From assembly GCA_963766795.1 (NCBI GenBank), contig CAVYBN010000007.1, positions 54,389 through 118,388 of the forward strand: a DNA stretch of 64,000 nt, in the 5' to 3' direction. Positions 14,958 to 53,031 of the stretch are shown piece by piece (the stretch's first letter is position 1; each line of letters begins with the position of its first letter). Made by a program: the position numbers and the translations under genes. The stretch comes from Candidatus Parcubacteria bacterium (GTDB lineage: Bacteria; Patescibacteriota; Minisyncoccia; Phycocordibacterales; PALSA-1337). The notes beneath the pieces are model-generated. The model was not told the DNA's origin, searched no databases, and worked only from the letters and a program-made list of their open reading frames with translations.

Positions 14958-18032
<3,075 letters not shown>

Positions 18033-35465: not shown

Positions 35466-36365
35466 CTAGTTTCTGACCGCGCGTATGTTCTTGAAATCGT
35501 CTCCTTTGGCCGGGAAGCTTTTTACGAACTTCTCGAAATCAGACGGCGGCAGAGGCACGAGCTCCCGCTTGTCCTCGTCTATGACCGACAGTGACAAGCC
35601 TTGATCGCGGAGCTTCTCCAGAAGCTCGATAGGACTGCGAGAGAGCCCCTGTATCGCCTTCGGATTGAATTCCGAGAATAAAACTAGATTGCGGTTGGCA
35701 GCCAAGGTCTCGCGCATGCCGTCTATCGCCAAAATCTCCGCGCCTTCGATATCCATCTTGATGATATCCACCTTGGGAGAGCCCTGTCGCTTGAGAGAGC
35801 TGTCTAATGTGTCGCATGCCACTTCAGCCTCCCCGAGCTGATGGCGGTTGTTCGCGAATGAATGCAGGCCGCTGTGAGCGTCCGCCAAGAACAATGTGCG
35901 CGCGCCGGCTCTGTCCGAAAGCGCCAGCTTCACGGCAGTGGCCCAGGAGAATCCGTTCTTGGCGATGTTTTTTTCAAGGATGGCAAAATTCTTTTCTTCC
36001 GGCTCATAAGCGAACACCCGCCCGGTCGGGCCAACGCGCCCGGCCGCGATCACGGTGTAGTATCCGATATTGGCTCCCATGTCGACTACAGTCATTCCGG
36101 GCCTGACATCCTTCCTGAAGAGCTCGACCTCGAACGGGTCGTGCGCGCCAAATGCCAAGGCTCCGGAGCTGCCTACATCATACTTGTCCAGAAAGACTTC
36201 GCCTTCCTCTATCTTGACCGAGTCCGGCATCATGGCGCTGATAGCTTTATTGGCCATCCAACGCAATGGCCTCGGCTTGCAGATGGTGATGTAGAAAAAT
36301 CTGACTGCCGATGGCGACAGACAAAGGATGAGCTTTTTCAGCGAAGAGGCGAGACGACGTTTCAT
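35466..36365 (-). CDS. FkbM-family methyltransferase
   Basis: VVDMGANIGYYT ... VFAYEPEEKNF ... DIIKMDIEGAEILAIDGM (canonical Methyltransf_21). Confidence 0.8.
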   Translation of the reverse strand: MKRRLASSLKKLILCLSPSAVRFFYITICKPRPLRWMANKAISAMMPDSVKIEEGEVFLDKYDVGSSGALAFGAHDPFEVELFRKDVRPGMTVVDMGANIGYYTVIAAGRVGPTGRVFAYEPEEKNFAILEKNIAKNGFSWATAVKLALSDRAGARTLFLADAHSGLHSFANNRHQLGEAEVACDTLDSSLKRQGSPKVDIIKMDIEGAEILAIDGMRETLAANRNLVLFSEFNPKAIQGLSRSPIELLEKLRDQGLSLSVIDEDKRELVPLPPSDFEKFVKSFPAKGDDFKNIRAVRN

Positions 36366-38668
36366 TTGAATGAATAGACTTTCAAGCCGCCAGTCTCGTA
36401 GACTTCGCGGAGGATCTTATACTGATCCATCTTCCAGCTCGGATCCTTGACCGTGTCCCAAACGACATAATCCACGCGATACTTCCTGATATCCTTGGTA
36501 AAGCCGTCCGCAAATATGTTGTCAGGCGTGAATAAGATCCTCTCCTTAGGCAATAAGTAACTTCCAGCCAAGTATTCCCAAACGACGTTATCGAAGGTAT
36601 AGATCGGAACCAGCGCCGAAATATCTTCATTGGCGAACACGACGCTCTGCGGCGTTGAACTGGCGTTAAGCCATTTCATCAAAGGCATATAGCGCTGATC
36701 GAAGGCGACGCTGTCATGCCAATGGACATATGATGAATAGCTGACGAATGCATTGGCCCCGAATGAAACGAGCGTGATCGCGATGATGGCAACCATGGCT
36801 AGCATCCGGCGGTTTTTGAGGATATGTAAAAGGACATAGATGAGAACGATCGTGAATATCGGCACGTTGAAATACCAATGATAGTGGCCTTCTTGCAAGA
36901 GATGCCCGGTGATGACCTGCTGATTGATCACGACGAAAGCGGTGGCGAGAAGGCCGAGCAGGAACCAATCGGTTTGCGAGCGCCCGAATCCAGATAAGCG
37001 CTTCTTCAAGAAAAGATATCCGATGAAAATGGCGAGCGTGATGCAACCGGCGACGCTTACGAACGGAATATGGGACATGACCAGCTTCAGGCTGTCGGCA
37101 AAATCGGCATAATACGGGCTCCGGGTCACGGCGATCATGTCATATATGAAATAGGAACCTACGACAATGCCGATGAACATCGATGCCGCAAGCTTGGCGG
37201 CATCTTTACGTCGTCTAGCCAGGAAGAGCCCCGCGATGAAGACGGCGGCCAGAGCGGCGATGAAGGTCATATCAAAGATATACACATAGAAAGATGCTCC
37301 GAATACGAACCCGAGACAGATATACCATTTCCATTTATGTTCCTTGAGGGCGATGAAAAGCAGGTTGAGGTACGAGAAGAAGAAGATCGAGCTGAATTGC
37401 GGATATATGGGACGAGAATATGTTGTGAATCCCCAGAAGCTCGGGTATGCCGTGTCCAACCGCAGGAGATGCGGGATATCCGGCGCGTTCATGAAATTAT
37501 AGCCGAGCATGACAGCACACATGGCCACAATCGACCATGCGCGCTTTCCGGTCATTCTGAAGAACAGCAGATAGATGAGGAAGGCTACAATGGCCGGAAG
37601 AAGGAACTTATAGATCAGGGCCAAGACGGGCACCGAGAGATTGAAGATGATCCCAGGCACGGCCAAGATAGGATCTGCCAGACTGAAGCTTCCCGGTGGC
37701 ACGGAGTATTTATCTTCATATATGAACGGATTAAACGAAATGTCTCCTGCGTAGGCCTCGTGGATTCGCGCCAGATAATACGGTTCGGCATCGCCTTTCA
37801 TCATATACAGGCCTTGATATGACGAGCCGAGGCTTTGGATGAAGATGAACTGGGGACCGACCGTGGCAATCCCGATCAGCACGGCGAAGACGATGGCCCA
37901 GATGTGTTTTTTTATAAATGACCGGCATTTAAAAGAAGATTTATCGCCATACGCCCCGATTATAAGATTATTCTTGATCTTCATAAGCTCCCAGAAGCCG
38001 AAGATGTACGAGCCCAAGTTGACAGAATTCCCGGCCGGATTGTCCCACTTGACTTCGATCTCCTGGATGACGAGGCCTTTGGTCTGGGCGATAGCGACCA
38101 GCTCGGTATCGAAGCCGAAACGGTCGATGGTCTGCGTTTGGAAGACCGGCTCCGCTGCGGCCGCGGTGAACAATTTGAATCCGCGGATGGTGTCGTATAT
38201 GTTCGGCGTCACCAGCGACCGGATGATCACCTTGCAGACCTTGCCAAGAGCGCGCCGGTACCACTGATTATCGTCGCGTGCGTGTGAGCCCGGCAATTCT
38301 ATGGAACCGATCACAATATCCGCTCCGGCTTCGATATGCTTCTGGAACCGGTCGAAATTATCTATAGTGATGGAATTATCCGCATCCATGAAAAGACGGA
38401 GCTTGCCGCGAGCCAACAGCATCCCCTGCTTCACCACCGCTCCTTTGCCGCGATTGCGATCGTTCTCGACGACCTCAAGATGCTTGAATTTCCTGCCGAA
38501 ACCTCTCACAAAATCCGCCGTACCGTCGGAAGAACCGTCGTCGACCACGATGACTTCGGCCTTAAAAGGCTTTCCCTTCAGGTACGCGGCTATACTATCC
38601 AAGGTAGCGCCGATGCGCGCCTTCTCGTTATAGGCAGGAATGACTATGGATAGGTAGATATCAGGCAT
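36362..38668 (-). CDS. Bifunctional-looking protein. It has an N-terminal GT2 polyprenyl-phosphate glycosyltransferase (GtrB/DPM1-like) domain fused to a large polytopic membrane domain of at least 12 TM helices (GT-C/YfhO-like).
   Basis: SIVIPAYNEKARIGATLDSI ... EVIVVDDGSSDGT ... FMDADNS, then ~500 aa of hydrophobic helices. Confidence 0.75.
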   Translation of the reverse strand: MPDIYLSIVIPAYNEKARIGATLDSIAAYLKGKPFKAEVIVVDDGSSDGTADFVRGFGRKFKHLEVVENDRNRGKGAVVKQGMLLARGKLRLFMDADNSITIDNFDRFQKHIEAGADIVIGSIELPGSHARDDNQWYRRALGKVCKVIIRSLVTPNIYDTIRGFKLFTAAAAEPVFQTQTIDRFGFDTELVAIAQTKGLVIQEIEVKWDNPAGNSVNLGSYIFGFWELMKIKNNLIIGAYGDKSSFKCRSFIKKHIWAIVFAVLIGIATVGPQFIFIQSLGSSYQGLYMMKGDAEPYYLARIHEAYAGDISFNPFIYEDKYSVPPGSFSLADPILAVPGIIFNLSVPVLALIYKFLLPAIVAFLIYLLFFRMTGKRAWSIVAMCAVMLGYNFMNAPDIPHLLRLDTAYPSFWGFTTYSRPIYPQFSSIFFFSYLNLLFIALKEHKWKWYICLGFVFGASFYVYIFDMTFIAALAAVFIAGLFLARRRKDAAKLAASMFIGIVVGSYFIYDMIAVTRSPYYADFADSLKLVMSHIPFVSVAGCITLAIFIGYLFLKKRLSGFGRSQTDWFLLGLLATAFVVINQQVITGHLLQEGHYHWYFNVPIFTIVLIYVLLHILKNRRMLAMVAIIAITLVSFGANAFVSYSSYVHWHDSVAFDQRYMPLMKWLNASSTPQSVVFANEDISALVPIYTFDNVVWEYLAGSYLLPKERILFTPDNIFADGFTKDIRKYRVDYVVWDTVKDPSWKMDQYKILREVYETGGLKVYSFK

Positions 38669-38810
38669 GAAATATCCAGTATTTATATATGAAAAAGCTC
38701 TCTAGCGCAACCAAGCCGGTAGCTATGACGAAGGCTATCACAGCCGACATCAAGTACCGCAAGCCGGTGAATCTGGTCAAGATATACATCAAGGCCACGG
38801 CTATGCTCAT
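38661..38810 (-). pseudogene. GtrA-like C-terminal fragment (49 aa from the first ATG, extendable to ~72 aa with CTG/TTG starts). Its stop overlaps the start of the GT2-membrane gene in an ATGCCTGA overlap.
   Basis: Minus-strand translation gives MSIAVALMYILTRFTGLRYLMSAVIAFVIATGLVALESFFIYKYWIFHA. The last ~60 nt are ~85% identical to the 3' end of the FemAB::GtrA gene at 42205-42270 (...LVALGSFFVYKYWIFTRRAS). It is too short for the ORF track. Confidence 0.35.
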
Positions 38811-38860
38811 GCAGGAGGTGATTGCAAAAAACAGCCCTTGTGATAGAGTCCCTTTCAGAT

Positions 38861-39325
38861 ATGAATAAAAATAAAATAGCCCTCATCCAAGGCGCATTTG
38901 ACCTTCTCAATTATGGTCACGTCCGCGCGCTCGGCGCAGCCAGACACGTTGCCGCGCATGTCATAGTCGCCCTGAATGGCGACGGGCTCATCAATAACAA
39001 CGGCCGTTGGAGCTACAAGGACAGCAGGCCTGTCCTGCCATGGTGGCAAAGGAAAGCCATACTAATGTCGCTCCGATCCGTCGATCGGGTCGTTCCGGCT
39101 CACACATTCAGCCCTCTCGAGCTGTTGAAGAGATACAAGGCCGACGTATACGTCGTAGGCCTGGAATGGAAGCACACGAAGCAAGCCGAGATCGAATATA
39201 TGATGGAATCAGGAGGGAGGATCATCTGGACGCCGCGATACAAAGGCGTCATCTCGACAACCCATATAAAGCTCATGCTCCTCGAGGAGGCTCAAAGGGC
39301 GAGCGTCAAAGCCGCTTCACGATAG
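38861..39325 (+). CDS. Cytidylyltransferase-like nucleotidyltransferase (RfaE-domain-II / TagD-like)
   Basis: IALIQGAFDLLNYGHVRAL contains the (H/Y)xGH nucleotidyltransferase motif. 155 aa. The start is set at MNKNK. Confidence 0.7.
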   Translation: MNKNKIALIQGAFDLLNYGHVRALGAARHVAAHVIVALNGDGLINNNGRWSYKDSRPVLPWWQRKAILMSLRSVDRVVPAHTFSPLELLKRYKADVYVVGLEWKHTKQAEIEYMMESGGRIIWTPRYKGVISTTHIKLMLLEEAQRASVKAASR

Positions 39326-39387
39326 ACCCGCGAAATAGGCGGGATATGCACAACATTTACGGGCGTCCCTGCGGATGCCCGTCATTT

Positions 39388-40572
39388 TTATGCTGTGGCC
39401 TCCCCCGTGATGAACCGCAGGATCCTTTTTGCACGATTGTCCCATGTCAGCGGCTCGACATCGGCGCGGGCTTTTTTTGACAGAGCGGCTGCACGAGCCG
39501 GGTCTTTGAGGATGCCTATAAGCCCGCGCGCGAGGCCTTCTGCATCGTCGGGGGGCACCAGCACAGAATTGCCTTCATTCAAGATCTCGCGCAAAGACGG
39601 CAGGTCTGAAGCCACGATCGGAATCCCGCTTGCCATGTATTCGAAGAGCTTGATCGGCGACGTATATCTCACGGACTCCTCGCTCCGGGCGCTGTTCGGC
39701 AGCAAGAGAGCGTCGGCGGATCGGAGATAGCGCGGGATGATCTTGCGGTCGCGATAGCCGATGAAGTCCATGTTCATGATCTTTCGACGAGCAACGACAT
39801 GGCGATAATCCGCGACGTCTTCAGCACTGCCGCCGACGATGACGAAGCGCATGTCCTGAATAGCGCTTGGCACAGCCGGGATGCTCTTACCCATGATCTC
39901 TGCGGCATCGACGAGAGTATCGACGCCTTTCCAACCGTAGAGAAAACCAGAATATAAGGCGATCTTCTTATCAGCCGGCAATCCCAATTCCTTTCGTAAG
40001 GCTTGTCTCTCGTCAGTGAATGAGAACTCAGCCAGATCGATGCCATTCGGCAGAGGCAGGACGTCGTTGAAGCCGTTCGCTTTGAATTCATCGGCCACGC
40101 CGCGGGAGTTGGTCACGAACTTCTTGACCCGCCTCAGTGAAAAGAAGAACATCTTTTTTTTCAGAAGGATGCGATGCGCTTCATAGACTGTCTCGAAACC
40201 GAGGGCGCTCAAAAGGACCGCTGTGGCAAATTCACGGGTATACATGAGAGTCCTTTTCCTAGACATGAAGAGCACGCGTGCGAAAACCGAAAATGTGAAT
40301 GTGACAAGCTGAACCCAGTAAGCCAGCCATTCTAGGCGATCGAACATATCGATGCTAGGCACATAGGTTATCTGGAAACCCTTACGGATGCGGTAAAAGC
40401 TGTAGGCGTCTTCGGCGATCGCGTTGTGCCGCCGCGGCACGATCAATTCGATATCCGCTCCGGCAGCGGCAAAAGCTTCGCACATCTTGGCAATCTGCAA
40501 GCCGTGGGCCTTCTCCGTGGGCATCCGGACATTGCTGACGTACAAGATCTTTTTTGCCAGAGACCGGCTCAT
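39388..40572 (-). CDS. GT4-family glycosyltransferase
   Basis: The C-terminal EESVRYTSPIKLFEYMASGIPIVASDLPSLREIL matches the GT4 E..K..E.MA.G.PVV motif. Confidence 0.85.
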   Translation of the reverse strand: MSRSLAKKILYVSNVRMPTEKAHGLQIAKMCEAFAAAGADIELIVPRRHNAIAEDAYSFYRIRKGFQITYVPSIDMFDRLEWLAYWVQLVTFTFSVFARVLFMSRKRTLMYTREFATAVLLSALGFETVYEAHRILLKKKMFFFSLRRVKKFVTNSRGVADEFKANGFNDVLPLPNGIDLAEFSFTDERQALRKELGLPADKKIALYSGFLYGWKGVDTLVDAAEIMGKSIPAVPSAIQDMRFVIVGGSAEDVADYRHVVARRKIMNMDFIGYRDRKIIPRYLRSADALLLPNSARSEESVRYTSPIKLFEYMASGIPIVASDLPSLREILNEGNSVLVPPDDAEGLARGLIGILKDPARAAALSKKARADVEPLTWDNRAKRILRFITGEATA

Positions 40573-41138
40573 ATATCGCGCTCGGGCATGGCTACGCAGA
40601 TCAGGTTCGGATTCTCGATTCGGAATAAAGCCGGCAGATATTTCAAGAGCATACCGCGGCTGGATGTGAAGTGCAGATTATGGAAACGTGTGATATAGCC
40701 GACCTGACGCAAGCTGAACTCAAGACTCTCCTTATCCCAGATGAAATAATGGCGGCCATGCTCCGGCAGATATGTCTTGGCTTCGTTGTCGAAGCCGCGC
40801 CTGTTCGGGACGACGATGAGCAGCCTGCCGCCAGCGGAAAGGATTCCTTTGACTCGCAGGGCGAGACCTAGAGGGTCCTTTATGTGCTCGAAGACATGAT
40901 TGATTATGACCAGATCGAATTTGCCCTGGAGATGCAGGTCTTCAAGGTCCTCCTTTACGAAAGCGACTCTGGGGTCCAGCCGAACGGGCTTATTATAGAG
41001 ATCCACGCCCACGATCTTCTCTAGATGGGGGTATCGCGAAGCGATATCGTTGATGAGCTTGCCATCTCCGCACCCGAGCTCGGCCAAGCTTTTCTTCCCG
41101 GCTACCAGTTTGTCTATTATTTTTAGGAGTGATTCCAT
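40569..41138 (-). CDS. Class-I SAM-dependent methyltransferase
   Basis: LAELGCGDGKLINDI ... FDLVIINHVFEHIKDP. Confidence 0.8.
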   Translation of the reverse strand: MESLLKIIDKLVAGKKSLAELGCGDGKLINDIASRYPHLEKIVGVDLYNKPVRLDPRVAFVKEDLEDLHLQGKFDLVIINHVFEHIKDPLGLALRVKGILSAGGRLLIVVPNRRGFDNEAKTYLPEHGRHYFIWDKESLEFSLRQVGYITRFHNLHFTSSRGMLLKYLPALFRIENPNLICVAMPERDI

Positions 41139-42190
41139 ATGTCTCTGAAAGCTTCAGCGAGCTTCCGCGCCATTTCGCTTGTCGAAAGCCGCTCTTCCGC
41201 TGATCGCCGCGCATGGCGCGCCAGCCGCTCCGCCAGAGCCTTGTCATCCAGCATGGCCAGCTTGGCTGCTATGTCTTTTGGACTGCGGAAGTCGACCAGC
41301 AAAGCGTCCGAACCGTCCGTGACATAATCAGTGATGTACGCCTTCCTCGAAGCGATGATCGGCAGGCCGCTCGCCATGGCTTCGACCAAGACGGTCTGTC
41401 CGGAACAATCGGATCCGTCGCCGTGACCATCGTCGTGCGTAATGAGGAGAAGCGCCGCGGCTTCGGCAAATTTAGCATAGACTTGCGCTTGCGGCAAATC
41501 GAGATGCACGCGCACATTCGGCGGGATATCCTGGAGATCCGAGAGATTTCTCTGACTACAGGCAAATTCGAATCGCCTGTGCGGAAGCATCCGAGCCGCG
41601 TCCGCCACTGTGCCATAATCCCTCCCGTTGTCCCTGCCAGCCGACAAGATAGAGCTCTTCCGCCCGGAATAAACCGGCTTGTGAAAGCGGACATCCACAC
41701 CGAGAGGTACGAAGAAGATACGGCCTTGGAACGACGGCAGAGCCTCCTCAAGATGCGCCTTTTGCACACGCGAAAGGCAGACGACGCCGTCAGCCCCGCC
41801 GATCAGCCAGCGCAACAATCGCCGTTTCAGAGGCCTGTCTCGATTGGCCCCTAGCACGCGGCCGAGGCTGATATCCAAAAGCACGAACTTGGTTTTCAAC
41901 CGGAAGAGCCGCTTCAGGAACAGGCCGTACAACAACGAAGATCCGAATATCAGGTCGTATCTGTCAGACAAAGAGAAACTGGCGATCAGAAGGAGATGCT
42001 TCAAACGGAACGGCATGATCGAGTCAAGGCATCCGATAACAGGGATATCGCTGAACTCTTTAAACTCGGCTTCGATATCGGATCCCGAAAGTTGGTCGAG
42101 GCCGTAGAATTGCGTGTCAGGATAATCGACACTGATCTCGCCTTTGAACTTATCCTTGCGCGAACCTGAATAAAGATAGAGGACTTTCAT
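41123..42190 (-). CDS. GT4-family glycosyltransferase
   Basis: GQTVLVEAMASGLPIIASRKAYITDYV in the GT4 C-terminal domain. Confidence 0.8.
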   Translation of the reverse strand: MKVLYLYSGSRKDKFKGEISVDYPDTQFYGLDQLSGSDIEAEFKEFSDIPVIGCLDSIMPFRLKHLLLIASFSLSDRYDLIFGSSLLYGLFLKRLFRLKTKFVLLDISLGRVLGANRDRPLKRRLLRWLIGGADGVVCLSRVQKAHLEEALPSFQGRIFFVPLGVDVRFHKPVYSGRKSSILSAGRDNGRDYGTVADAARMLPHRRFEFACSQRNLSDLQDIPPNVRVHLDLPQAQVYAKFAEAAALLLITHDDGHGDGSDCSGQTVLVEAMASGLPIIASRKAYITDYVTDGSDALLVDFRSPKDIAAKLAMLDDKALAERLARHARRSAEERLSTSEMARKLAEAFRDIWNHS

Positions 42191-42202
42191 GTATATATCG
42201 GC

Positions 42203-43252
42203 TCAAGAAGCCCGACGGGTGAATATCCAGTATTTATATACAAAAAAGCTGCCGAGCGCAACCAAGCCGGCGGCAATGACTTGAGAGAGGATGTACCACA
42301 AGCCGAAAGCGTCGGTGAAGATGTAAACCAAGAGCGTATTCACGCACAGATTGAAAATCGAAACGCCGAGGTATTTGCCGGCTTGGCGGTGCATGCCGTC
42401 GGTGGCGCGATCTCTGAATGTCCAGAATTTTTGCAGGAAGAAGCTGACTCCGAAAGCGATGATGAAAGCGACCACGGCCGAGGCGAGGTACCACAGGCCG
42501 GCGAATCTCGTGAACGCGTACAGCAAGCCGATATCCACCGCAGCAGCAGTGCCGCCGGAGACGAGGTATCGGAATATCTGCTGGCGATGCGACCATAGGC
42601 CAGCCAATCGCGGCGAGATCTTGCCGAGCCGCAGGCCGAAGTTGTGTGTTTTGGTGGACATGAATGATTTGAGACGATAGCTTGGCGAGCCGGACTTGGC
42701 ATTGAAGATGTAGAATCTCTTAGCTCCGAAGCCTTCTTTGAAATGATTGTGTGAATCATCACTGATCGTTGAAGGACCGAGATCGAGCCAGTGGATGCCC
42801 TTTTCAATCGACCATTTGACCAGTTCGTCATAAAGGCGGTCATTCACGGCATGGTCCCAATAAGAAGGATCGGAGATATTGAACATCAGCAAGGCGTATT
42901 CGCTTGAAACCAAACAATAATTCACACCAACCAATTTACCAGGCTTCGATTCGTTAGCATTCGATCCGCCGCCTTTCAATTCCTCGCCGCGGTCGAACAA
43001 CGAAATCGTCACCACGCTTTCACTAAAAGCTTTTTCAAGGTCTGCGAACCATTCACGGCTTCTTGGCTTGCTTTTCAAGCGTTCCATTGATATTGAATAC
43101 AATGCATAGAAATCTTTCGGAACTGCGCCGATCTTCAAAGTGAATAAATTCTTATAAGATTTCCTGACCAGATTCCGCGTCTTGCCTTCATAAAGACCGA
43201 AGCGCTTTTCAGGATCATTCACGCCTTTCAAATCAAGCGCGTAATTAATCAT
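42203..43252 (-). CDS. FemAB/Acetyltransf_6-like (GNAT-fold) domain fused to a C-terminal GtrA-family 4-TM domain. The start is reassigned to MINYAL.
   Basis: The first 69 called codons are Ser/Arg-rich nonsense overlapping the upstream ORF. The GNAT-like core (WDHAVNDRLYDELVKWSIEKGIHWLDLGPS) is followed by a GtrA signature (VSGGTAAAVDIGLLYAFTRFAGLWYLASAVVAFIIAFGVSFFLQKFWTF). Confidence 0.5.
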   Translation of the reverse strand: MINYALDLKGVNDPEKRFGLYEGKTRNLVRKSYKNLFTLKIGAVPKDFYALYSISMERLKSKPRSREWFADLEKAFSESVVTISLFDRGEELKGGGSNANESKPGKLVGVNYCLVSSEYALLMFNISDPSYWDHAVNDRLYDELVKWSIEKGIHWLDLGPSTISDDSHNHFKEGFGAKRFYIFNAKSGSPSYRLKSFMSTKTHNFGLRLGKISPRLAGLWSHRQQIFRYLVSGGTAAAVDIGLLYAFTRFAGLWYLASAVVAFIIAFGVSFFLQKFWTFRDRATDGMHRQAGKYLGVSIFNLCVNTLLVYIFTDAFGLWYILSQVIAAGLVALGSFFVYKYWIFTRRAS

Positions 43253-43517
43253 TCGAGTTCCCGGATTGAACGGGACTGAAACTGTTGAACTGAACATTCT
43301 TATAGCGGTTCTTGATTGAGTTAATCGCTGATTCGAATTCAACCGGCTTCGCTTCGAATGCCAGCGAATAGAACCATTTGAAACCGCCGGCGAAATATTC
43401 CTTGCCATCGGTGAAGACAGGAATAGCGGAATGGTCGCCATTAACCGGCGCGACGCCATAAGCGTTTTTCAGATAATCGAGCGTCTTCTGCTCTTTAATG
43501 AGGCCAGTGATATGCAT
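43245..43517 (-). CDS. Small protein (90 aa) overlapping the FemAB::GtrA start by 8 nt (ATGATTAA). It may be the detached N-terminal lobe of the FemAB-like domain.
   Basis: Protein-like translation (MHITGLIKEQKTLDYLKNAYGVAPVNGDHSAIPVFTDGKEYFAGGFKWFYSLAFEAK...). Its frame differs by one from the downstream gene. Confidence 0.4.
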   Translation of the reverse strand: MHITGLIKEQKTLDYLKNAYGVAPVNGDHSAIPVFTDGKEYFAGGFKWFYSLAFEAKPVEFESAINSIKNRYKNVQFNSFSPVQSGNSND

Positions 43518-43518
43518 G

Positions 43519-44379
43519 TTATTTCTTCCTTCGAAGCAGTCTTTTAATGGCTAGGTATCGGCGTGATTTGGCTACTTTGCACTTGAATTCAGCCATTGAA
43601 GTAGTCGCAGAAATCGCCATGCGCGGCAATTCCAAAGGATTCACCTGCGAACCATTCGACTGCGGCTCGATGATCTTTTCTTTAACAGTGACCGCCGATT
43701 GGAATCGAAGCGAGGAAACGATCTCAATCGTCTCATTTGAGTACTTGCCATACGGATACGCAAAACAAACAACAGGTTTTCCAGTGATGCCTTCGATCAT
43801 TTGTTTCGATTGCGATATGTCTTTCAACGCGTCTTCCCTGTTCATGTCTCTCAAAATACCGTGCGAATGCCCGTGCGGCATGATCTCGACCAAGCCTCCG
43901 TTCGAAAGCTCTCTGATTTGGTCGATGTCCATGACAGACAGAGAAGAAGCAACGATTGGAGTCGAGCTGCCCGCATTGAGATTGACGGCATCGGCGCTGG
44001 CGGTAGCTGGCAAATCGCCTTTTTTCAAGGTGAATTCTTTTCCGATGTATGCCGTTGAAATAAATATCGTGGCTGGAGTCGAATGCTTTTTGAGTATCGG
44101 CAAGGCTTCATTGAAATTATCCTCATATCCATCATCGAATGTGACTGCGACGGCATTCACTGGCAAAGTACCTGATCTCAATCGTGAGGCGAATTCGGAG
44201 AGCCTCAAGCATTCGCGGCCTGACGATTTCAAGAATGACATTTGTTTTTCAAACTCTTCCGGAGTGACTGTGAATTGCGCGCGATTGTGGCCTATCGAGT
44301 GGTACATCAAGATCACGGGCGCCGGATCGCCGGCTGGCGCGAAAACTGAAATTATTTTCCAGAAGATATTTTTAATCAT
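43519..44379 (-). CDS. Polysaccharide deacetylase (CE4, NodB homology domain)
   Basis: VAVTFDDGYEDNF (motif 1, TFDDG), MPHGHSHGIL (His motif), CFAYPYG. Confidence 0.85.
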   Translation of the reverse strand: MIKNIFWKIISVFAPAGDPAPVILMYHSIGHNRAQFTVTPEEFEKQMSFLKSSGRECLRLSEFASRLRSGTLPVNAVAVTFDDGYEDNFNEALPILKKHSTPATIFISTAYIGKEFTLKKGDLPATASADAVNLNAGSSTPIVASSLSVMDIDQIRELSNGGLVEIMPHGHSHGILRDMNREDALKDISQSKQMIEGITGKPVVCFAYPYGKYSNETIEIVSSLRFQSAVTVKEKIIEPQSNGSQVNPLELPRMAISATTSMAEFKCKVAKSRRYLAIKRLLRRKK

Positions 44380-44439: not shown

Positions 44440-45084
44440 TTAGCCTGCAATCGGCTCCAGTGTGAAGAAATGATGGTACTGATTCTCGAACGGCACGAAT
44501 TCGCGACGGATGATGAAATGCTGTTTAATAGCTTTTCTGATCGTAGCCGGAGAATATCCCTTCTTGCCGATCTCCCAATAGTGCTGGCCATTCCAAGAAT
44601 GTTGCCGAGGAAATGGAGCTTTAAAAGCGAACTTGATCTCCGGAACAAACGGTAATTTGAGCAGGAATCTAAAAGCCGGACCGAAATGCGGCAAGCTGAT
44701 GACTGCCCCATTCTTAGCCACGCGGGCGATCTCTGCCAATGCATGCGGGAATTTCTCGAACGGGAGATGTTCGAGGACTTCGAAGACGCAAACGACATCG
44801 AAAGACTTATCTGGAAAAGGCAGGGCTTCGGCGCTACCGACCACGTCCGGATTTAAATCAGCGGCGATATCCAAGCTCGTATATTCGATATCCGTATTAT
44901 TCTTTATGAAACTGCAAAAAACGCGGTCGCCGACGCCGATCTCCAGGATCGAGCGCGGCTGGAAAGCCATGGCCTCATCGAGCTGATGGAAATAGCTCGC
45001 CCAGCGCTCCGGCCGCGCGTAGGCCTTGAGATCATAAGCTTTCTTGTCGACCTGCTTGCTTTGCACGATTTTGGGGAATCGCAT
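44440..45084 (-). CDS. Class-I SAM-dependent methyltransferase
   Basis: ILEIGVGDRVF ... FDVVCVFEVLEHLP. Confidence 0.75.
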   Translation of the reverse strand: MRFPKIVQSKQVDKKAYDLKAYARPERWASYFHQLDEAMAFQPRSILEIGVGDRVFCSFIKNNTDIEYTSLDIAADLNPDVVGSAEALPFPDKSFDVVCVFEVLEHLPFEKFPHALAEIARVAKNGAVISLPHFGPAFRFLLKLPFVPEIKFAFKAPFPRQHSWNGQHYWEIGKKGYSPATIRKAIKQHFIIRREFVPFENQYHHFFTLEPIAG

Positions 45085-46321: not shown

Positions 46322-47188
46322 TTATTTCTTTGATCGGCGTGGGATTTCTGCGCCGTAAACGCCCTTTAATAGGTCGAGATCCTTCTTGGACGATTTCAAT
46401 AATTCCACATTCTTGTCGCGAATGGCTTCAAGAACCATGAGGCCTGCCTTATCTTTCATCCTCTCTCCAAAGAATCGCGTGAAGGCCTCGAAGTCTTTGA
46501 TGAAACAGTGGCCGCCAGCGCCGCGACCGCTCTTATGGACCGGATTCAGATAACGGTGCGAGGAGATCATTGGATCGGCACGGAAGGAGGCCATGAGCAT
46601 ATCCCAATCCATAGCATGCCTATGAGCGATGTCATAGAGCATGTTCGAGAAGACGACTGAAATGTATCCGTGGATGTTGTGCGCATATTTGATGAACTCT
46701 GCTTCGTCAGACGAACAAATGAGACTGTACGGGGCATGCGGCAGAATTGATAGCACGCGTTTGGCAGCGACGCGATGAGCCGCATCATTCTTCGGCATGC
46801 CGACGATATTACGATCGGGATTGGCGGCGTCTTGCGCGGCAGTCCTTTCTGACAAGAATTCCGGCGAATCAAGGACGATGCGATCCGGGTAGGCCTTTTG
46901 GATCGCGCGAGTCGTGCCCATGATGAGCGTGGATTTGATGACAGCGATCTTGCCTTTTCCCACGAGCTTGACGGCACTTTTGACAATGCTCGAATCAAAG
47001 CCCTTGGGTGTGGTCGGAGTCGGTACAGCGATGAATACCACGTCACAGCCTGAAATCAAGCGTTTATTGCCCTTATAGGCTTTTTCCAGGCCATATCTGA
47101 CGGTTTTATAGCCGCGTTTTTCGAAATCGTCGGCATAATTCCTGCCGATCCAGCCTTGGCCGATGAAGCCGATCGTTGGTTTTTTCAT
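46322..47188 (-). CDS. UDP-glucose/GDP-mannose dehydrogenase-family protein, short form (288 aa, NAD-binding plus central domain only)
   Basis: IGFIGQGWIG Rossmann motif, VVFIAVPTP and SPEFLSE resemble UGDH family motifs. It lacks about 120 C-terminal residues of canonical UGDH. Confidence 0.55.
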   Translation of the reverse strand: MKKPTIGFIGQGWIGRNYADDFEKRGYKTVRYGLEKAYKGNKRLISGCDVVFIAVPTPTTPKGFDSSIVKSAVKLVGKGKIAVIKSTLIMGTTRAIQKAYPDRIVLDSPEFLSERTAAQDAANPDRNIVGMPKNDAAHRVAAKRVLSILPHAPYSLICSSDEAEFIKYAHNIHGYISVVFSNMLYDIAHRHAMDWDMLMASFRADPMISSHRYLNPVHKSGRGAGGHCFIKDFEAFTRFFGERMKDKAGLMVLEAIRDKNVELLKSSKKDLDLLKGVYGAEIPRRSKK

Positions 47189-47283: not shown

Positions 47284-48492
47284 TCAATGTTGCATGCCGA
47301 TCGCCTCAGTAATGGCTTCAGCTACCCTTTCTGATTCCGGCTCAACAATGATGGCTCCGACTTCACCGGCGACTCCGACATCCGTTGAAACGATCTTGCA
47401 TCCGGCGGCTTGAGCTTCGACTAATGACATTCCATAGCCTTCGAATAAGGAAACATTTAAGAACAAGTCGGCGGTCTTGTAATACGAGATCAGCGTGGTT
47501 TTGTCGGCCCAATCTTCGAAGACGACCGACTCACCGGCTTGTGGCTCTCCGCCAGCTGGCGGACCACCATTTGAGCCACGATCATCGCCAGTTCCAATCA
47601 ATCCCAATTGTTTTGCGATCCCTCTGAGCTTCGCCTCCTGCGAACCGCGGCCGACAATGACAAGCCCGGCCTTCGGAATCTTCTTAACGACTTCCTTGAA
47701 AGCCTCGATCGCCATGCCGATGTTCTTCTCTGGTTCCAACCGCGAAGCCATCAAAATGATCTTTTTGAATTGCGGATATTTCTTGCGCAGATCAGCGTTT
47801 GAATCGATTGGTATACTCTTAATCGAATCAGTGTCGACAGCGATCGGCCTGACTGCGATCTTAGTCGAATCGATCCCGACGGTTTCAACCAGATATTTTT
47901 TGATCCTATCTGAAACGACGCGGATAGAATCAGCTTTGCGCACATACGACAGCGCCAGAGCTTTGCGGATCTTATTGGTTAGATTGAACGGATAATAAGG
48001 GCTGCCGATGTCCTCATGGATCTGGATCTCCAATGGCAAGTTGAATCGCTTCTTTAGAGAAACTCCGGCCATGGCCGTCAACGAAGCGTCTTGGCAAGTC
48101 ATCTCCGTGATGCCGCGCTTCTCGATGATGAATCTGCCGAGGCTGATCGCGTCGAAAGGATACAATGATTTGAATCGAGAGCGCGTGGAGTATGCCCAGC
48201 AGTTGGGAGAAATAACGGATTCAGAATTTATGATTTTCAAACTGTCACCCCCGCGAAGGCGGGGGTCCAGTGTATTACCACTGACATAATCGTTGTGACC
48301 CTGGATTCCCGCTTTCGCGGGAATGACACAAAAATTTCGTCTTGCAAAGACGATGATGTGAACTTCACCCCAATCTTTGGCATATGCGATCTGTCGCGCA
48401 CGCACAGAACTGCCCTCTTCAAAGATAGACCGATCAGTCGAGATCATCAGCAATCTTCGATTGGTCTTGGTTGTGGACTGATTGGGAGGCAT
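47284..48492 (-). CDS. GT4-family glycosyltransferase with an in-frame Family-A insertion
   Basis: LFEGYGMSLVEAQAAGCKIVSTDVG. Insertion VIPAKAGIQGHNDYVSGNTLDPRLRGGDS. Confidence 0.85.
   Translation of the reverse strand: MPPNQSTTKTNRRLLMISTDRSIFEEGSSVRARQIAYAKDWGEVHIIVFARRNFCVIPAKAGIQGHNDYVSGNTLDPRLRGGDSLKIINSESVISPNCWAYSTRSRFKSLYPFDAISLGRFIIEKRGITEMTCQDASLTAMAGVSLKKRFNLPLEIQIHEDIGSPYYPFNLTNKIRKALALSYVRKADSIRVVSDRIKKYLVETVGIDSTKIAVRPIAVDTDSIKSIPIDSNADLRKKYPQFKKIILMASRLEPEKNIGMAIEAFKEVVKKIPKAGLVIVGRGSQEAKLRGIAKQLGLIGTGDDRGSNGGPPAGGEPQAGESVVFEDWADKTTLISYYKTADLFLNVSLFEGYGMSLVEAQAAGCKIVSTDVGVAGEVGAIIVEPESERVAEAITEAIGMQH
48244..48327. repeat. Family-A palindromic element, in frame in the GT4 gene
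   Basis: gtcacccccgcgaaggcgggggtccag ... ctggattcccgctttcgcgggaatgac. Confidence 0.85.
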
Positions 48493-51368: not shown

Positions 51369-51779
51369 TCACAGATTGGCTGGGAGCGGCGAGTGGGCCG
51401 GTTTTAAATCGACTGTCGGAACCGAGGCTTTCGAATCGGCCATAATCGGCTTCTGTGCAATCACTTGATTCAAGACAACAAACGGCTTGTGAGTCACACC
51501 TGCATTCGAGGCGGGCGAGGCAGAGCTTCCGAAGAGCCGAGGACTGTCCGAGCGAGCAGAGATCGAAGCCTTTAAAGAAGGGTTTGCGTCAGCCGCGCCT
51601 TCTTTGTCATCCCCGCGAAAGCGGGGATCCAGTGTCTTTGTTGTTTGACCCTGGATTCCCGCTTGCGCCTTCGCTTCGCTTCGGCTTGCGGGAATGACAA
51701 CAACATCCTTCGCGGGACTGCTTCGAATCTCTGCCTTCTTCACCGTCGGCTCATGGAACTTGACTATCCCCTCCTCCAC
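51369..51779 (-). CDS. Pro/Ala/Ser-rich low-complexity protein containing a Family-A element in frame. It overlaps the VirD4-like gene end by 29 nt.
   Basis: VIPASRSEAKAQAGIQGQTTKTLDPRFRGDDK, then S/P/A-rich sequence. Confidence 0.3.
   Translation of the reverse strand: MEEGIVKFHEPTVKKAEIRSSPAKDVVVIPASRSEAKAQAGIQGQTTKTLDPRFRGDDKEGAADANPSLKASISARSDSPRLFGSSASPASNAGVTHKPFVVLNQVIAQKPIMADSKASVPTVDLKPAHSPLPANL
51606..51698. repeat. Family-A palindromic element (a variant with a ~25-bp insert in the right arm)
   Basis: gtcatccccgcgaaagcggggatccag ... ctggattcccgcttgcgccttcgcttcgcttcggcttgcgggaatgac. Confidence 0.8.
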
Positions 51780-53031
51780 TTCTGCGCGCGGCTTCGGAGA
51801 ACTGCTCGCGCGAAGCGGCGATGATGTCCGTGAAATACGACGTGCTCGGATGCGCGATCGGCGGCAGAGTCATGGCCGAGAATGGCGGCGAAGTCAGGCC
51901 GTCGATCATCAGCTTCAGGTATATCTGCGCAAAGCCCAGATTGACCAGATCCTCGATCTCGAACTGCGGCGTGAACTCATTCTCGAGCATCTCCGCGTCG
52001 TTGGCACCGATGCGGAAGAGGATCATCGTGCCGACGTTGCCGAAGACCGCCGGCCGCACGAACTCGTCCATCTGCTCGACGTATTGGTGGGCGATGGTCA
52101 GGTTGAGCTTGTATTTGCGGGCTTCGGACAGGATGTCCGCGAATGACGCGTTGGCGAAGTTCTGGAATTCGTCGACGAACAGATAGAAGTTCGGCAGCAT
52201 CTTCATGACGCGGTCCGGCACGTCGGCGCGCGACATCGCCGCCAGGTATATCTTGGTCACCAGAAGTCCCCCGAGGAGCTTCATGTTCTCGTCGCCGATC
52301 TTGCCCTTGGACAGGTTGATGATCATGATCTTCTTCTTGTCCATGGCCTCGCGGAAATCGAACGACGAATGCGGCTGGCCGATCATGTTCCTGATCAGCG
52401 GGTTGGCCGTGAATTGTCCGACCTTATTCTGGATGGCCGGCACGGCCTCGGCGGCCTGACGCTCGGTGTAGCTGGCGAACTCCTTGGTCCAGAAAGCTTT
52501 CACTGAAGGGTCTTTTATGTATGAGACGATGTCATTCCTGTATGCCTTGTCCGAGAGCATCCTATTCACGCCCAAAAGAGTCGAGCCCGGTGCTTCGAGG
52601 AGCGCCAGGAGAGTATTGGTCAGAATGTATTCCATGCGAGCCGACCAAGCGTCTACCCAGATCTTCTTGAAAGTGCTCATCAGGCCGGAGACGACCAGAT
52701 GGCGCTTGTCGGGATCGATCGATTCGAGGACGTTGAATGAGATCGGGTATTCGGTGTCGAAAGGCGCGATGTAAATGACATCGCGGATGCGGGACTGCGG
52801 CACATATTCCATGAGGAGGTCGGCGGTCTTGCCGTGCGGGTCGATGAAGCACATGCCCTCGCCGTTCTGGATATCCTGGACGGCCATGTTCTCGAGCAAG
52901 GTGGATTTGCCCATGCCGGTCTTGCCGATGACATAGACGTGGCGGGTGCGATCCTTGGCCTTGATGCCGAACTTCACCCGCTTGTTGCGGGCATCCGTCT
53001 CGGCGAAATATGTGATCTTATTCTCGTCCAT
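51751..53031 (-). CDS. Soluble VirD4/TraD/TraG-like (TrwB_AAD_bind or HerA/FtsK-like) P-loop ATPase
   Basis: Walker A VIGKTGMGKST, Walker B LFVDEFQNF, and a coupling-protein-like AHQYVEQM...GNVGTMILFRIG block. No N-terminal TM segment. Confidence 0.65.
   Translation of the reverse strand: MDENKITYFAETDARNKRVKFGIKAKDRTRHVYVIGKTGMGKSTLLENMAVQDIQNGEGMCFIDPHGKTADLLMEYVPQSRIRDVIYIAPFDTEYPISFNVLESIDPDKRHLVVSGLMSTFKKIWVDAWSARMEYILTNTLLALLEAPGSTLLGVNRMLSDKAYRNDIVSYIKDPSVKAFWTKEFASYTERQAAEAVPAIQNKVGQFTANPLIRNMIGQPHSSFDFREAMDKKKIMIINLSKGKIGDENMKLLGGLLVTKIYLAAMSRADVPDRVMKMLPNFYLFVDEFQNFANASFADILSEARKYKLNLTIAHQYVEQMDEFVRPAVFGNVGTMILFRIGANDAEMLENEFTPQFEIEDLVNLGFAQIYLKLMIDGLTSPPFSAMTLPPIAHPSTSYFTDIIAASREQFSEAARRSGGGDSQVP

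Follow-up and report, generated by a model that had tools for sequence, protein, structure and literature searches.

An interrupted gene joining a FemX-like domain to a GtrA-type membrane domain in a bacterial glycan locus

The locus and its interrupted gene

The window, a 64,000-nucleotide stretch of a contig from a Candidatus Parcubacteria bacterium, carries on its minus strand an ATG-started ORF of 349 aa (42203..43252) encoding an Acetyltransf_6/FemAB-like domain and then a GtrA domain with four transmembrane (4-TM) helices, together with a 90-aa ORF (43245..43517) whose 3′ end it overlaps. The initial annotation had the coordinates of both ORFs right, and gave the longer one a residue too many (350 aa). 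The public record calls both ORFs as separate genes. Directly upstream is the gene of a CE4 polysaccharide deacetylase (43519..44379, minus strand; PF01522 Polysacc_deac_1, E=7e-28), the translationally adjacent partner: its stop codon is followed after 1 nt by the start of the gene considered here, which has an AGGAAG Shine-Dalgarno-like motif upstream. Alignment shows that the CE4 catalytic motifs TFDDG, HGHSH, AYPYG, and LPR are conserved; the protein has no clear signal peptide, and its top family matches are PNAG deacetylases (PgaB/IcaB), not ArnD. Beyond it lies a SAM-dependent methyltransferase gene (MTase; 44440..45084, minus strand; PF08241), a conserved member of an MTase-CE4-Fem module that is kept in five of the other loci (L001, L002, L004, L008, and L010). 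In each of the eight other distinct loci, down to 40% identity, the Fem-like gene is directly preceded by CE4, with one MTase between the two in L001, and all nine distinct loci (the window and these eight) are CE4/GT4/MTase glycan clusters. The deacetylase neighbour and the glycan-locus setting, both recognised in the initial annotation, are thus borne out.

Downstream, a 768-aa GT2::GT-C fusion is encoded at 36362..38668 (minus strand). Its N-terminal polyprenyl-phosphate GT2 has a DAD motif at D95-D97, its top PDB matches being PfDPMS (7e-11), ArnC (2e-7), and GtrB, and its NCBIfam matches Dol-P-hexose transferase, PpgS, and AglJ. The C-terminal ~526 aa adopt a GT-C fold (pLDDT 91.8; best Foldseek matches STT3, AftA, DPY19, PglB, and ArnT) and belong to a family without a Pfam model. 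A homologue of this fusion is the next gene downstream of the Fem::GtrA gene in L002 and L005; the two are 3.5 kb apart in the window, and they are not adjacent in L001 and L004. In L001 a 230-aa GT2 homologous to the GT2 domain of the window stands beside a 620-aa membrane protein, which was considered as a GT-C homologue but shows no BLASTP similarity to it. The intervening ~3.5 kb in the window (38822..42190, mixed strands) holds two GT4 genes (41123..42190 and 39388..40572) and an MTase gene (40569..41138) on the minus strand, and a cytidylyltransferase-like gene (38822..39325) on the plus strand; a GT4 directly downstream of Fem::GtrA is common to the window and L004, and the whole segment is missing in L002 and L005. 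Next to it is a 49-aa ORF (38661..38816, minus strand), a degenerate GtrA remnant in which the end of TM4 follows immediately on TM1 and the beginning of TM2; it has 46-61% identity to the GtrA domain (tblastn against the window), and its stop overlaps the start codon of GT2::GT-C. It looks like a relic of an ancestral gene order in which Fem::GtrA was followed by GT2::GT-C.

The 90-aa and 349-aa ORFs share ATGATTAA, which, as had been observed, they read in different frames, but the change of frame does not occur there. DNA alignment reveals a single-column gap relative to the window at position 43283 in four of four homologous genes, where the window carries one surplus base, read as A on the minus strand and as T on the plus strand, in the minus-strand context TTCAAC-A-GTTTC, outside any homopolymer run and ~31 nt upstream of the overlap. 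This base shifts the frame, so that the '90-aa protein' ends in 12 residues (SFSPVQSGNSND) translated from the wrong frame; the genuine VSVPFNPGTR is encoded in the frame of the long ORF. When base 43283 is deleted there is an uninterrupted ORF of 437 codons, whose 5′ part (codons 1-78, MHIT...NVQFN; 43284..43517, minus strand) encodes most of a reduced N-terminal GNAT lobe.

Every homologous gene recovered is continuous across the frameshift site. In each of the 10 other locus ids, which represent 8 distinct loci, tblastn matched the catalytic region once only, meaning that none of the homologues is split, and five distinct homologues (P0002-5 and P0009, P0002 and L008 being different contigs) are continuous Fem::GtrA fusions of 418-438 aa; the objection that homologues might never be fused to GtrA thus fails. 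The initial annotation had left the choice between a frameshift and a genuine two-gene arrangement, and it is the former that stands. A functional split, either as two true genes or with the protein produced by programmed +1 frameshifting, would be in keeping with the two gene calls of the public record, with the ATG of the second ORF, and with an overlap typical of operon genes. However, exactly one inserted base sets the window apart from its continuous homologues, the ATG of the second ORF falls inside the gene at a position where other members have Leu, the split loses the strand with the invariant S80, P82, and F83, and TTCAACAGTTTC offers neither a slippery nor a stop-codon signal for frameshifting; we therefore reject both forms of this explanation, to which we give hardly any credence. 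The region 42203..43517 is almost certainly one frameshifted gene, and the pair of ORFs in the public record is its two halves. Either the gene has (recently) been inactivated in the source genome or it has been assembled wrongly; because the window copy retains all of the residues that are invariant in the family alignment, the damage should be recent or artefactual, and if the gene is indeed broken there, it may do nothing in that organism.

The Fem::GtrA fusion is very rare. A scan of the GTDB species representatives turned up only one relative (L007), and a scan of JGI metagenomes yielded four loci, which confirms the rarity, while such small numbers limit the statistics. Literature on FemAB, Acetyltransf_6, exopolysaccharide, and PEP-CTERM topics yielded no paper on the Fem plus GtrA architecture or its function.

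A FemX-like tandem-GNAT domain

Pfam supports the original division of the long ORF into a FemAB/Acetyltransf_6-like N-terminal part (PF13480) and a GtrA C-terminal part (PF04138). PF13480 is the sole catalytic-domain model passed, scoring 32.8 bits where 22 are required (E=9.4e-8) over residues 45-161 of the 349-aa product. The curated FemAB, FemX, and TIGR03019 models are not passed: Pfam FemAB (PF02388) scores 17.3 bits, under its cut-off of 24, NCBIfam FemX (NF047883) scores 22.6 against 500 and misses the equivalog threshold, and TIGR03019, the top NCBIfam match (E=7.7e-12), is partial (profile positions 127-199) at 44.9 bits against 260. These weak FemAB-type matches begin at profile positions ~127-153, indicating that the 349-aa ORF is without its N-terminal lobe. 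The 90-aa ORF alone has no family match in Pfam or NCBIfam; it aligns to the N-termini of all of the homologues, and in an AF2 model of the repaired protein, which has a tandem-GNAT fold with pLDDT ~90 over residues 1-270, its in-frame part (43284..43517) is modelled at pLDDT 88-92 within a single tandem-GNAT unit. The earlier suggestion that it is the N-terminal lobe of the same domain is thus upheld. The lobe is reduced to ~88 aa; its end (VSVPFNPGTR) and the C-terminal GNAT lobe make up residues 79-275 of the repaired protein (42692..43282, minus strand), in which a variable loop insertion of 16 aa (residues ~176-193) has low pLDDT.

The closest structures are enzymes that use aminoacyl-tRNA. 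The family profile matches FemX over residues 146-309 at E=6e-10 and over residues 115-308 at E=2.5e-14, and its PDB matches are aminoacyl-tRNA transferases only, with Sbb17 (5e-10), Sba18 (1e-8), and S. aureus FemX (7e-3) following FemX (2.5e-14). Foldseek ranks Sbb17/Sba18, FemX, FemA, and MprF in that order for the repaired model, with probability 1.0 to FemX, FemA, and Sbb17. The catalytic Lys of FemX and several of its other residues have counterparts here. HMM alignment puts the F-K of the motif SHNHFKEGFG on FemX F304-K305, so that Lys260 (K172 of the 349-aa ORF; codon AAA at 42737..42739, minus strand), which is one of just four invariant columns among 29 sequences of 23-82% identity, corresponds to Lys305, for which a catalytic role in FemX is described (PMC12945691); an R/K aligns with FemX R211, and W156 with FemX Y215. 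Within the C-terminal GNAT lobe there is also an invariant basic helix (K112-K122; 43151..43183, minus strand), whose KTRNLVRKS (K112-S120; helix 111-120 in the model) aligns with FemX KTKSKIKRP (K168-P176). A basic helix on GNAT domain 2 is known to bind the acceptor stem of tRNA (PMC6103681), and from the alignment we infer that KTRNLVRKS is a putative tRNA-binding helix of this type.

It is pertinent here that the sole Pfam model passed bears the name 'Acetyltransferase (GNAT) domain', and that acyl-CoA tandem GNATs (2wpw, VipF, and 3frm) appear in the fold search with E-values of ~1e-5 to 1e-6. The enzyme might then be an N-acyltransferase dependent on acyl-CoA or acyl-ACP, which places a non-acetyl acyl group on the amine exposed by CE4 with no involvement of aminoacyl-tRNA. 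We regard this as unlikely, since none of the sequence-level PDB matches is of that kind, the structural matches to Sbb17/Sba18 and FemX have E-values lower by four or more orders of magnitude, neither the catalytic Lys of FemX nor the basic helix varies, and in the C-lobe sequence, inspected by eye, the beta4-alpha3 position (SDPSYWDHAVNDRLYDEL) shows no Q/R-x-x-G-x-G/A acetyl-CoA loop. That the protein is a peptidoglycan branching enzyme of the classical kind, acting like FemX or MurM on lipid II with GtrA as its anchor beside the undecaprenyl-linked precursor, seems far less probable again. FemX is the best PDB sequence match, and the homologue P0011 carries the automatic name 'lipid II:glycine glycyltransferase', but the scores are far under the FemX and FemAB cut-offs given above, and the N-lobe, the part of FemX that binds UDP-MurNAc-pentapeptide, is shortened here to the ~88 aa already noted. 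Moreover, none of the nine distinct loci has a mur/fem context, the gene being preceded instead by CE4 within GT4/MTase clusters, and such extreme rarity is ill-suited to a core cell-wall function. We consider it likely that the protein is an aminoacyl-tRNA-dependent transferase acting on the amine freed by the CE4 enzyme. The window has no tRNA genes and therefore offers no hint as to the amino acid used.

The membrane domain and a possible lipid-linked pathway

A basic linker helix (residues ~276-310, beginning YRLKSFMSTKTHNFGLRLGKISPRL; 42587..42691, minus strand) joins the catalytic and membrane domains. It is modelled as a helix at 278-300 with low confidence, and in unfused homologues the same segment is the C-terminal end of the protein. 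The GtrA/DPMS-type domain that follows (residues ~311-437 and the stop codon; 42203..42586, minus strand) matches PF04138 (GtrA_DPMS_TM) over all 117 model positions (1-117), with E=1.2e-24 and 87.2 bits against a cut-off of 26.1 (residues 228-344 of the 349-aa ORF). The model has four long helices here (311-337, 343-366, 372-403, and 408-430) at low confidence (pLDDT 50-74), and there is a profile match to the TM domain of the P. furiosus DPMS (5mlz, E=6e-4). The closest GtrA domains are those on GT2 and GT4 enzymes; the proteins that carry them have the NCBI name 'Patescibacteria group bacterium'. The GtrA-like TM domain of PfDPMS binds Dol-P-Man, although translocation of polyprenyl-phosphate sugars by GtrA is debated even for characterised members (PMC12992685).

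The catalytic domain occurs in other contexts as well. Most relatives are without GtrA, which is absent from ~20 representatives of related clusters; one relative, P0030, has only a single TM helix at its C-terminus, and the relatives include a CE4(+DUF3473)::Acetyltransf_6 fusion (P0150), Fem-like::MTase fusions (P0052 and P0061), and GT4:: fusions. Since the ~20 relatives manage without GtrA, the chemistry does not in itself call for membrane anchoring, and a soluble nucleotide sugar or a lipid-PP-oligosaccharide could serve as substrate. A tRNA-dependent enzyme could have as its acceptor a nucleotide sugar, the repeat unit of a lipid-PP-oligosaccharide, or a glycolipid, with GtrA as a mere anchor that neither binds nor flips the substrate. 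GtrA in these organisms is fused at either end to many different enzymes, which suggests a generic membrane module; W. viridescens FemX itself takes a UDP-linked substrate (PMC12945691), and the many GT4s of the locus would be able to build an oligosaccharide. This explanation seems improbable to us, if a little less so than the use of acyl-CoA, because the Pren-P-GT::GT-C gene is directly downstream in two lineages and has the GtrA relic at its start in the window, and because the GtrA family as well as PfDPMS's TM domain are specifically tied to polyprenyl-P-monosaccharides (PMC12992685).

A lipid-linked substrate, suggested by the GtrA domain and by the conserved DPMS/ArnC-like GT2::GT-C neighbour, would fit a pathway that resembles those of Gtr and Arn. 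The intact product would be a 437-aa bitopic enzyme, consisting of a cytoplasmic FemABX-type tandem-GNAT transferase of ~290 aa with a reduced N-lobe, to which the C-terminal GtrA/DPMS-type 4-TM domain is attached via the basic helix. The GT2 like those of DPMS, ArnC, and GtrB would make a polyprenyl-phosphate-linked N-acetyl-hexosamine at the cytoplasmic face, and the adjacent CE4 would strip its N-acetyl group, much as ArnD deformylates Und-P-Ara4FN. The GtrA domain would keep the FemX-like domain at the membrane and close to the lipid carrier, and the FemX-like domain, with Lys260 serving as FemX Lys305 does and the KTRNLVRKS helix binding the tRNA acceptor stem, would move an amino acid from aminoacyl-tRNA onto the freed sugar amine. 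The neighbouring methyltransferases may alter the product further; the lipid-linked sugar would then cross the membrane by way of the GtrA domain or another factor, and the GT-C domain could pass the sugar on the outside to a surface glycan made by the many GT4 enzymes of the locus.

The initial annotation had proposed amino-acylation or acylation of a lipid-linked sugar at the membrane, which the evidence favours and sharpens to an aminoacyl-tRNA-dependent, Gtr/Arn-like process that we infer. An acceptor that is a sugar amine is suggested by the conserved CE4 neighbour and by the CE4, GT4, and MTase fusions among the relatives, and has a structural parallel in Sbb17/Sba18, which have been solved with the amino sugar streptothrisamine bound. 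All of the chemical steps are conjectural, and we put the chance that the full pathway holds as written at about even. More tentative still, and possible rather than probable, is the broader proposal that the family carries out a novel reaction, the aminoacyl-tRNA-dependent N-aminoacylation of a polyprenyl-phosphate-linked amino sugar by an enzyme fused to the very GtrA module that would handle this lipid, within an Arn/Gtr-like pathway that would decorate the surface of ultra-small, probably Patescibacteria-type bacteria with sugars carrying amino acids.

The known destinations of diverted aminoacyl-tRNA are the cross-bridges of peptidoglycan (Fem), the lipids of membranes (MprF), and a small number of antibiotics. 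If the proposal is correct, tRNA-dependent chemistry would extend to lipid-linked surface glycans, giving a third tRNA route into envelope chemistry besides those of Fem (peptidoglycan) and MprF (phospholipid). It would also provide testable roles for the many Acetyltransf_6/FemAB-like genes that lack an explanation in polysaccharide loci, those of PEP-CTERM systems among them, for GtrA domains fused to enzymes, and for the GT-C family that lacks a Pfam model. A narrower lesson concerns annotation, in that two ORFs of the public record are the halves of one gene.

Relation to known systems

The top fold match is to Sbb17/Sba18, Orf11-type proteins of streptothricin-type pathways (PDB 9wqw, 9wqx, and 9wqy; Foldseek E=1.8e-10, TM 0.6 on target), which are likewise compact (~285-310 aa), have the tandem-GNAT fold, and are aminoacyl-tRNA-dependent amide synthases. 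Orf11 of the BD-12 pathway, which is placed with the FemABX family, performs Gly-tRNA-dependent glycylation of streptothrisamine (PMC12945691), and this glycylation of an amino sugar is the same chemistry as that proposed for Fem::GtrA. However, Sbb17/Sba18 are soluble, belong to Streptomyces secondary metabolism, and act on a free small-molecule acceptor; they have neither a membrane domain nor a CE4/GT2/GT-C context, and their identity to Fem::GtrA is only ~15-17%. Fem::GtrA has conserved equivalents of Lys305, Phe304, Arg211, Tyr215, and basic helix 168-176 of FemX from Weissella viridescens (PDB 1ne9 and 4ii9), but FemX is soluble, has a full N-lobe of 145 aa rather than ~88, and uses UDP-MurNAc-pentapeptide, whereas Fem::GtrA is in a non-peptidoglycan context and under the FemAB/FemX cut-offs.

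In general plan Fem::GtrA also resembles MprF and other aminoacyl-phosphatidylglycerol synthases, which combine a cytoplasmic tRNA-dependent tandem-GNAT domain with a membrane domain that flips the lipid product (PMC6103681), and MprF is matched by fold at E ~1e-6 (Foldseek). In MprF, though, the membrane domain lies at the N-terminus, comprises many TM helices, and has no relation to GtrA, and the acceptor is a phospholipid hydroxyl (giving an ester bond), not a sugar amine. A different comparison is with the PEP-CTERM/XrtA FemAB protein (TIGR03019), for which the exopolysaccharide system it belongs to likewise provides a CE4 counterpart (TIGR03006). Fem::GtrA is not a member of TIGR03019, as its score against the cut-off shows; members of that family keep a complete N-lobe and lack GtrA, no XrtA context is seen around Fem::GtrA, and we found no functional characterisation of the PEP-CTERM FemAB proteins in the literature.

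The logic of the proposed pathway is shared with the Arn (ArnC, ArnD, ArnE/F, and ArnT), Gtr (GtrA/GtrB/GtrC), and mycobacterial GalN (PpgS/Rv3632/Rv3779) pathways, in which a Pren-P GT2 loads the lipid, a small GtrA- or SMR-like protein carries out the flipping or helps with it, and transfer of the sugar on the outer side falls to a GT-C enzyme (PMC12690121, PMC9671496, PMC12992685). In the Arn and GalN pathways the sugar is also deacylated while lipid-linked, ArnD removing an N-formyl group and a deacetylating factor of mycobacteria an N-acetyl group (PMC12690121, PMC9671496). The four protein types (Pren-P GT2, CE4, GtrA, and GT-C) are all encoded in the locus, but its CE4 matches PgaB/IcaB-type models rather than ArnD, and equivalents of ArnA and ArnB are absent. 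Aminoacylation and Fem-like enzymes are absent from all of these pathways, and the arrangement in the window differs from theirs in its fusions, which join GtrA to the modifying enzyme and GT2 to GT-C.

One gene with an extra base

Two reverse-strand ORFs encode the putative transferase: a short ORF of 90 aa (43245..43517), starting 1 nt past the stop codon of the adjoining CE4 polysaccharide deacetylase gene, and a long ORF of 349 aa (42203..43252) in a different frame, the two overlapping by ATGATTAA. The 349-aa product matches both Acetyltransf_6 (PF13480, E=9.4e-8) and the entire GtrA/DPMS transmembrane model (PF04138, E=1.2e-24), each above its curated cut-off; the fusion of a FemAB-like domain to GtrA proposed in the initial annotation is thus real, and no chance ORF pattern. 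FemAB-type models match this product weakly and begin no earlier than profile positions ~127-153, indicating that it lacks an N-terminal lobe, and the 90-aa product alone has no family match.

The short ORF had been suggested to supply that lobe, detached either by a frameshift or through a genuine two-gene arrangement. When the two products were joined and used as one query against 5.8 billion proteins, the matches included homologues (P0002-P0005 and P0009; 418-438 aa, 92-100% query coverage, 44-77% identity) that are continuous across both ORFs, which establishes the short ORF as the missing N-terminal part; four further proteins of ~290 aa lack GtrA. The homologues align across the junction as ...NVQFN-VSLPFDPGTR-MINY..., where the window has NVQFN in the short-ORF frame and VSVPFNPGTRMINY in the long-ORF frame. 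Aligned with four homologous genes at the DNA level, the window has exactly one column that they lack (TTCAAC-A-GTTTC), at position 43283 and not in a homopolymer; deletion of this base yields an open gene of 437 codons. The catalytic region is a single uninterrupted tblastn match in the other loci (10 locus identifiers, 8 distinct), and the frameshift is therefore the explanation that stands. A two-gene design or programmed frameshift is very unlikely, because the homologues are uninterrupted, the ATG of the 349-aa ORF is an internal residue (a leucine in some family members), and the split costs the protein its invariant S80, P82 and F83 (numbering of the repaired, 437-aa protein). Since the window copy keeps all of the family-invariant residues, the lesion is either a recent event or an assembly error.

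A FemX-like catalytic domain

The repaired protein is modelled with pLDDT ~90 over residues 1-270, including the repaired junction, as a tandem-GNAT unit with the N-lobe shortened to ~88 aa. Its best Foldseek match in the PDB is Sbb17/Sba18 ('aminoacyl-tRNA-dependent peptide synthase complexed with streptothrisamine', E ~2e-10), followed by W. viridescens FemX, S. aureus FemX and FemA, then the catalytic domains of MprF/aaPGS, and after these the acyl-CoA tandem GNATs (E ~1e-5 to 1e-6). Family profiles compared with PDB sequences match tRNA-dependent enzymes only (FemX 2.5e-14, Sbb17 5e-10, Sba18 1e-8, S. aureus FemX 7e-3). The invariant F259-K260 aligns with FemX F304-K305, an R/K with R211, W156 with Y215, and the invariant helix KTRNLVRKS with KTKSKIKRP; across 29 sequences of 23-82% identity, the only invariant columns are D245, G247, K260 and G264. 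K305 is the catalytic lysine of FemX (PMC12945691), and a basic helix is described as a common binder of the tRNA acceptor stem in Fem enzymes, L/F-transferases and aaPGS (PMC12945691, PMC6103681). Orf11 of the BD-12 pathway, which has been assigned to the FemABX family, uses Gly-tRNA to attach Gly to the amino sugar streptothrisamine (PMC12945691), the same sugar that is bound in the Sbb17 and Sba18 structures.

We also note a 16-aa Gly/Ser-rich insertion, RGEELKGGGSNANESKPG (42725..42778 region, residues ~176-193). Of the 10 aligned family members, the window's protein alone has it in this form, and P0007 has a different version. It is modelled with low confidence and probably represents a variable surface loop.

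The fusion is rare. Searches of 5.8 billion clustered proteins and of 241 million records from metagenomes turned up only five distinct fused genes besides the window's own. In a search of 1.84 billion cluster representatives, GtrA is present in just two of the 150 best, and GTDB species representatives include a single relative, which is unfused. A literature search found no paper describing the architecture, which is a novel arrangement of known parts.

Conserved neighbors and membrane partners

The eight other distinct loci comprise five with GtrA fused (L001, L002, L004, L005=L006=L009 and L008), two unfused (L003=L011 and L007) and one cut by a contig end (L010). In all eight a CE4 gene lies directly upstream of the Fem gene, usually overlapping it, with one methyltransferase between them in L001. 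The CE4 proteins keep the TFDDG, HxxxH, YPYG and LPR catalytic motifs and have no clear signal peptide. The wider module runs UDPG-DH-like, GT4, MTase, CE4, Fem(::GtrA). An exhaustive profile search identified more distant relatives in which Acetyltransf_6 is fused to an N-terminal CE4(+DUF3473) (P0150), an N-terminal GT4 (P0152) or a C-terminal SAM-methyltransferase (P0052, P0061), fusions that link the enzyme's function to deacetylation, glycosyl transfer and methylation.

The module is accompanied, also in L005, L006 and L007, by a conserved 288-aa UDP-glucose/GDP-mannose-dehydrogenase-like protein (46322..47188, reverse strand); part of its N-terminal NAD-binding domain and its central domain are matched, and the C-terminal domain, which it is too short to hold, is not. 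A TraG/TrwB-like type IV coupling-protein ATPase adjoins the glycan cluster both here (51751..53031, reverse strand) and in the distantly related L001 (1..799). Elsewhere in the window a palindromic element of ~85-100 bp, with core GCGGGAATCCAGGGTC and outer arms TGTCATTCCCGC / GCGGGRATGACA, recurs at 8930, 9995-10048, 12065-12115, 15570-15623, 17313-17366, 18964-19020, 48243-48328, 51604-51700, 57429-57479, 62784 and 63368 (18 half-site matches, where chance alone would give 0.7). The majority of copies fall within long ORFs, for example the GT4 gene 47284..48492, and are read through in frame as peptides such as IPAKAGIQ...LDPRLRGGD, resembling RPE/MITE-like in-frame insertions.

The GtrA part of the fusion matches the transmembrane domain of P. 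furiosus DPMS, and its nearest GtrA relatives in the database (48-59% identity) belong to fusions with GT2 and GT4 enzymes, attached at one end or the other. Inspection of the sequence shows basic residues in the linker, TM2-TM3 loop and C-terminal tail, which by the positive-inside rule puts the N-terminal catalytic domain on the cytoplasmic side, where aminoacyl-tRNA is available.

In L002 and L005 Fem::GtrA is immediately followed, with an overlap or a gap of 1 nt, by the gene for a 771-782-aa homologue of the window's 768-aa GT2::GT-C protein (36362..38668, reverse strand); in the window this gene lies 3.5 kb downstream of Fem::GtrA. The N-terminal GT2 part of the protein carries a DAD motif and best matches PfDPMS, ArnC and GtrB, as well as Dol-P-hexose / PpgS / AglJ models. 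The 526 aa at the C-terminus fall within a family without Pfam annotation (39 matches, mostly standalone proteins of ~520 aa) and model as a GT-C fold (pLDDT 91.8) with STT3, AftA, DPY19, PglB and ArnT as top matches. It is unusual in its own right for a donor-making enzyme to be fused to the one that uses the donor. Directly in front of this gene, a 49-aa ORF (38661..38816, reverse strand) is a remnant of a GtrA domain: it is degenerate and internally deleted, is 46-61% identical to the Fem::GtrA C-terminus, and overlaps the GT2::GT-C start codon with its stop, implying that a past rearrangement separated two formerly adjacent genes. The ~3.5 kb between them holds GT4, MTase, GT4 and cytidylyltransferase-like genes. 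The remnant is evidence for an ancestral arrangement in which GT2::GT-C followed Fem::GtrA, and for later insertion of the GT4/MTase/GT4 cassette.

A proposed aminoacylation pathway

Because the locus encodes all four protein types of a Gtr/Arn-type pathway together with a Fem-type transferase, we propose a six-step pathway. The analysis itself establishes gene structure, folds, conserved residues and synteny; the donor, acceptor, step order and role of GtrA are inferred. Polyprenyl-P-HexNAc would be made and would then lose its N-acetyl group; the freed amine would be aminoacylated from aminoacyl-tRNA at the cytoplasmic face and optionally methylated; and the product would be translocated and passed by the GT-C domain onto a surface glycan. 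If this chemistry is confirmed, aminoacyl-tRNA would be shown to serve envelope biosynthesis in a new way. The scheme follows the logic of Gtr/Arn-type pathways (PMC12690121, PMC9671496, PMC12992685), with which the locus has in common the Pren-P GT2, CE4, GtrA module and GT-C types, whereas the Fem-type transferase is additional here.
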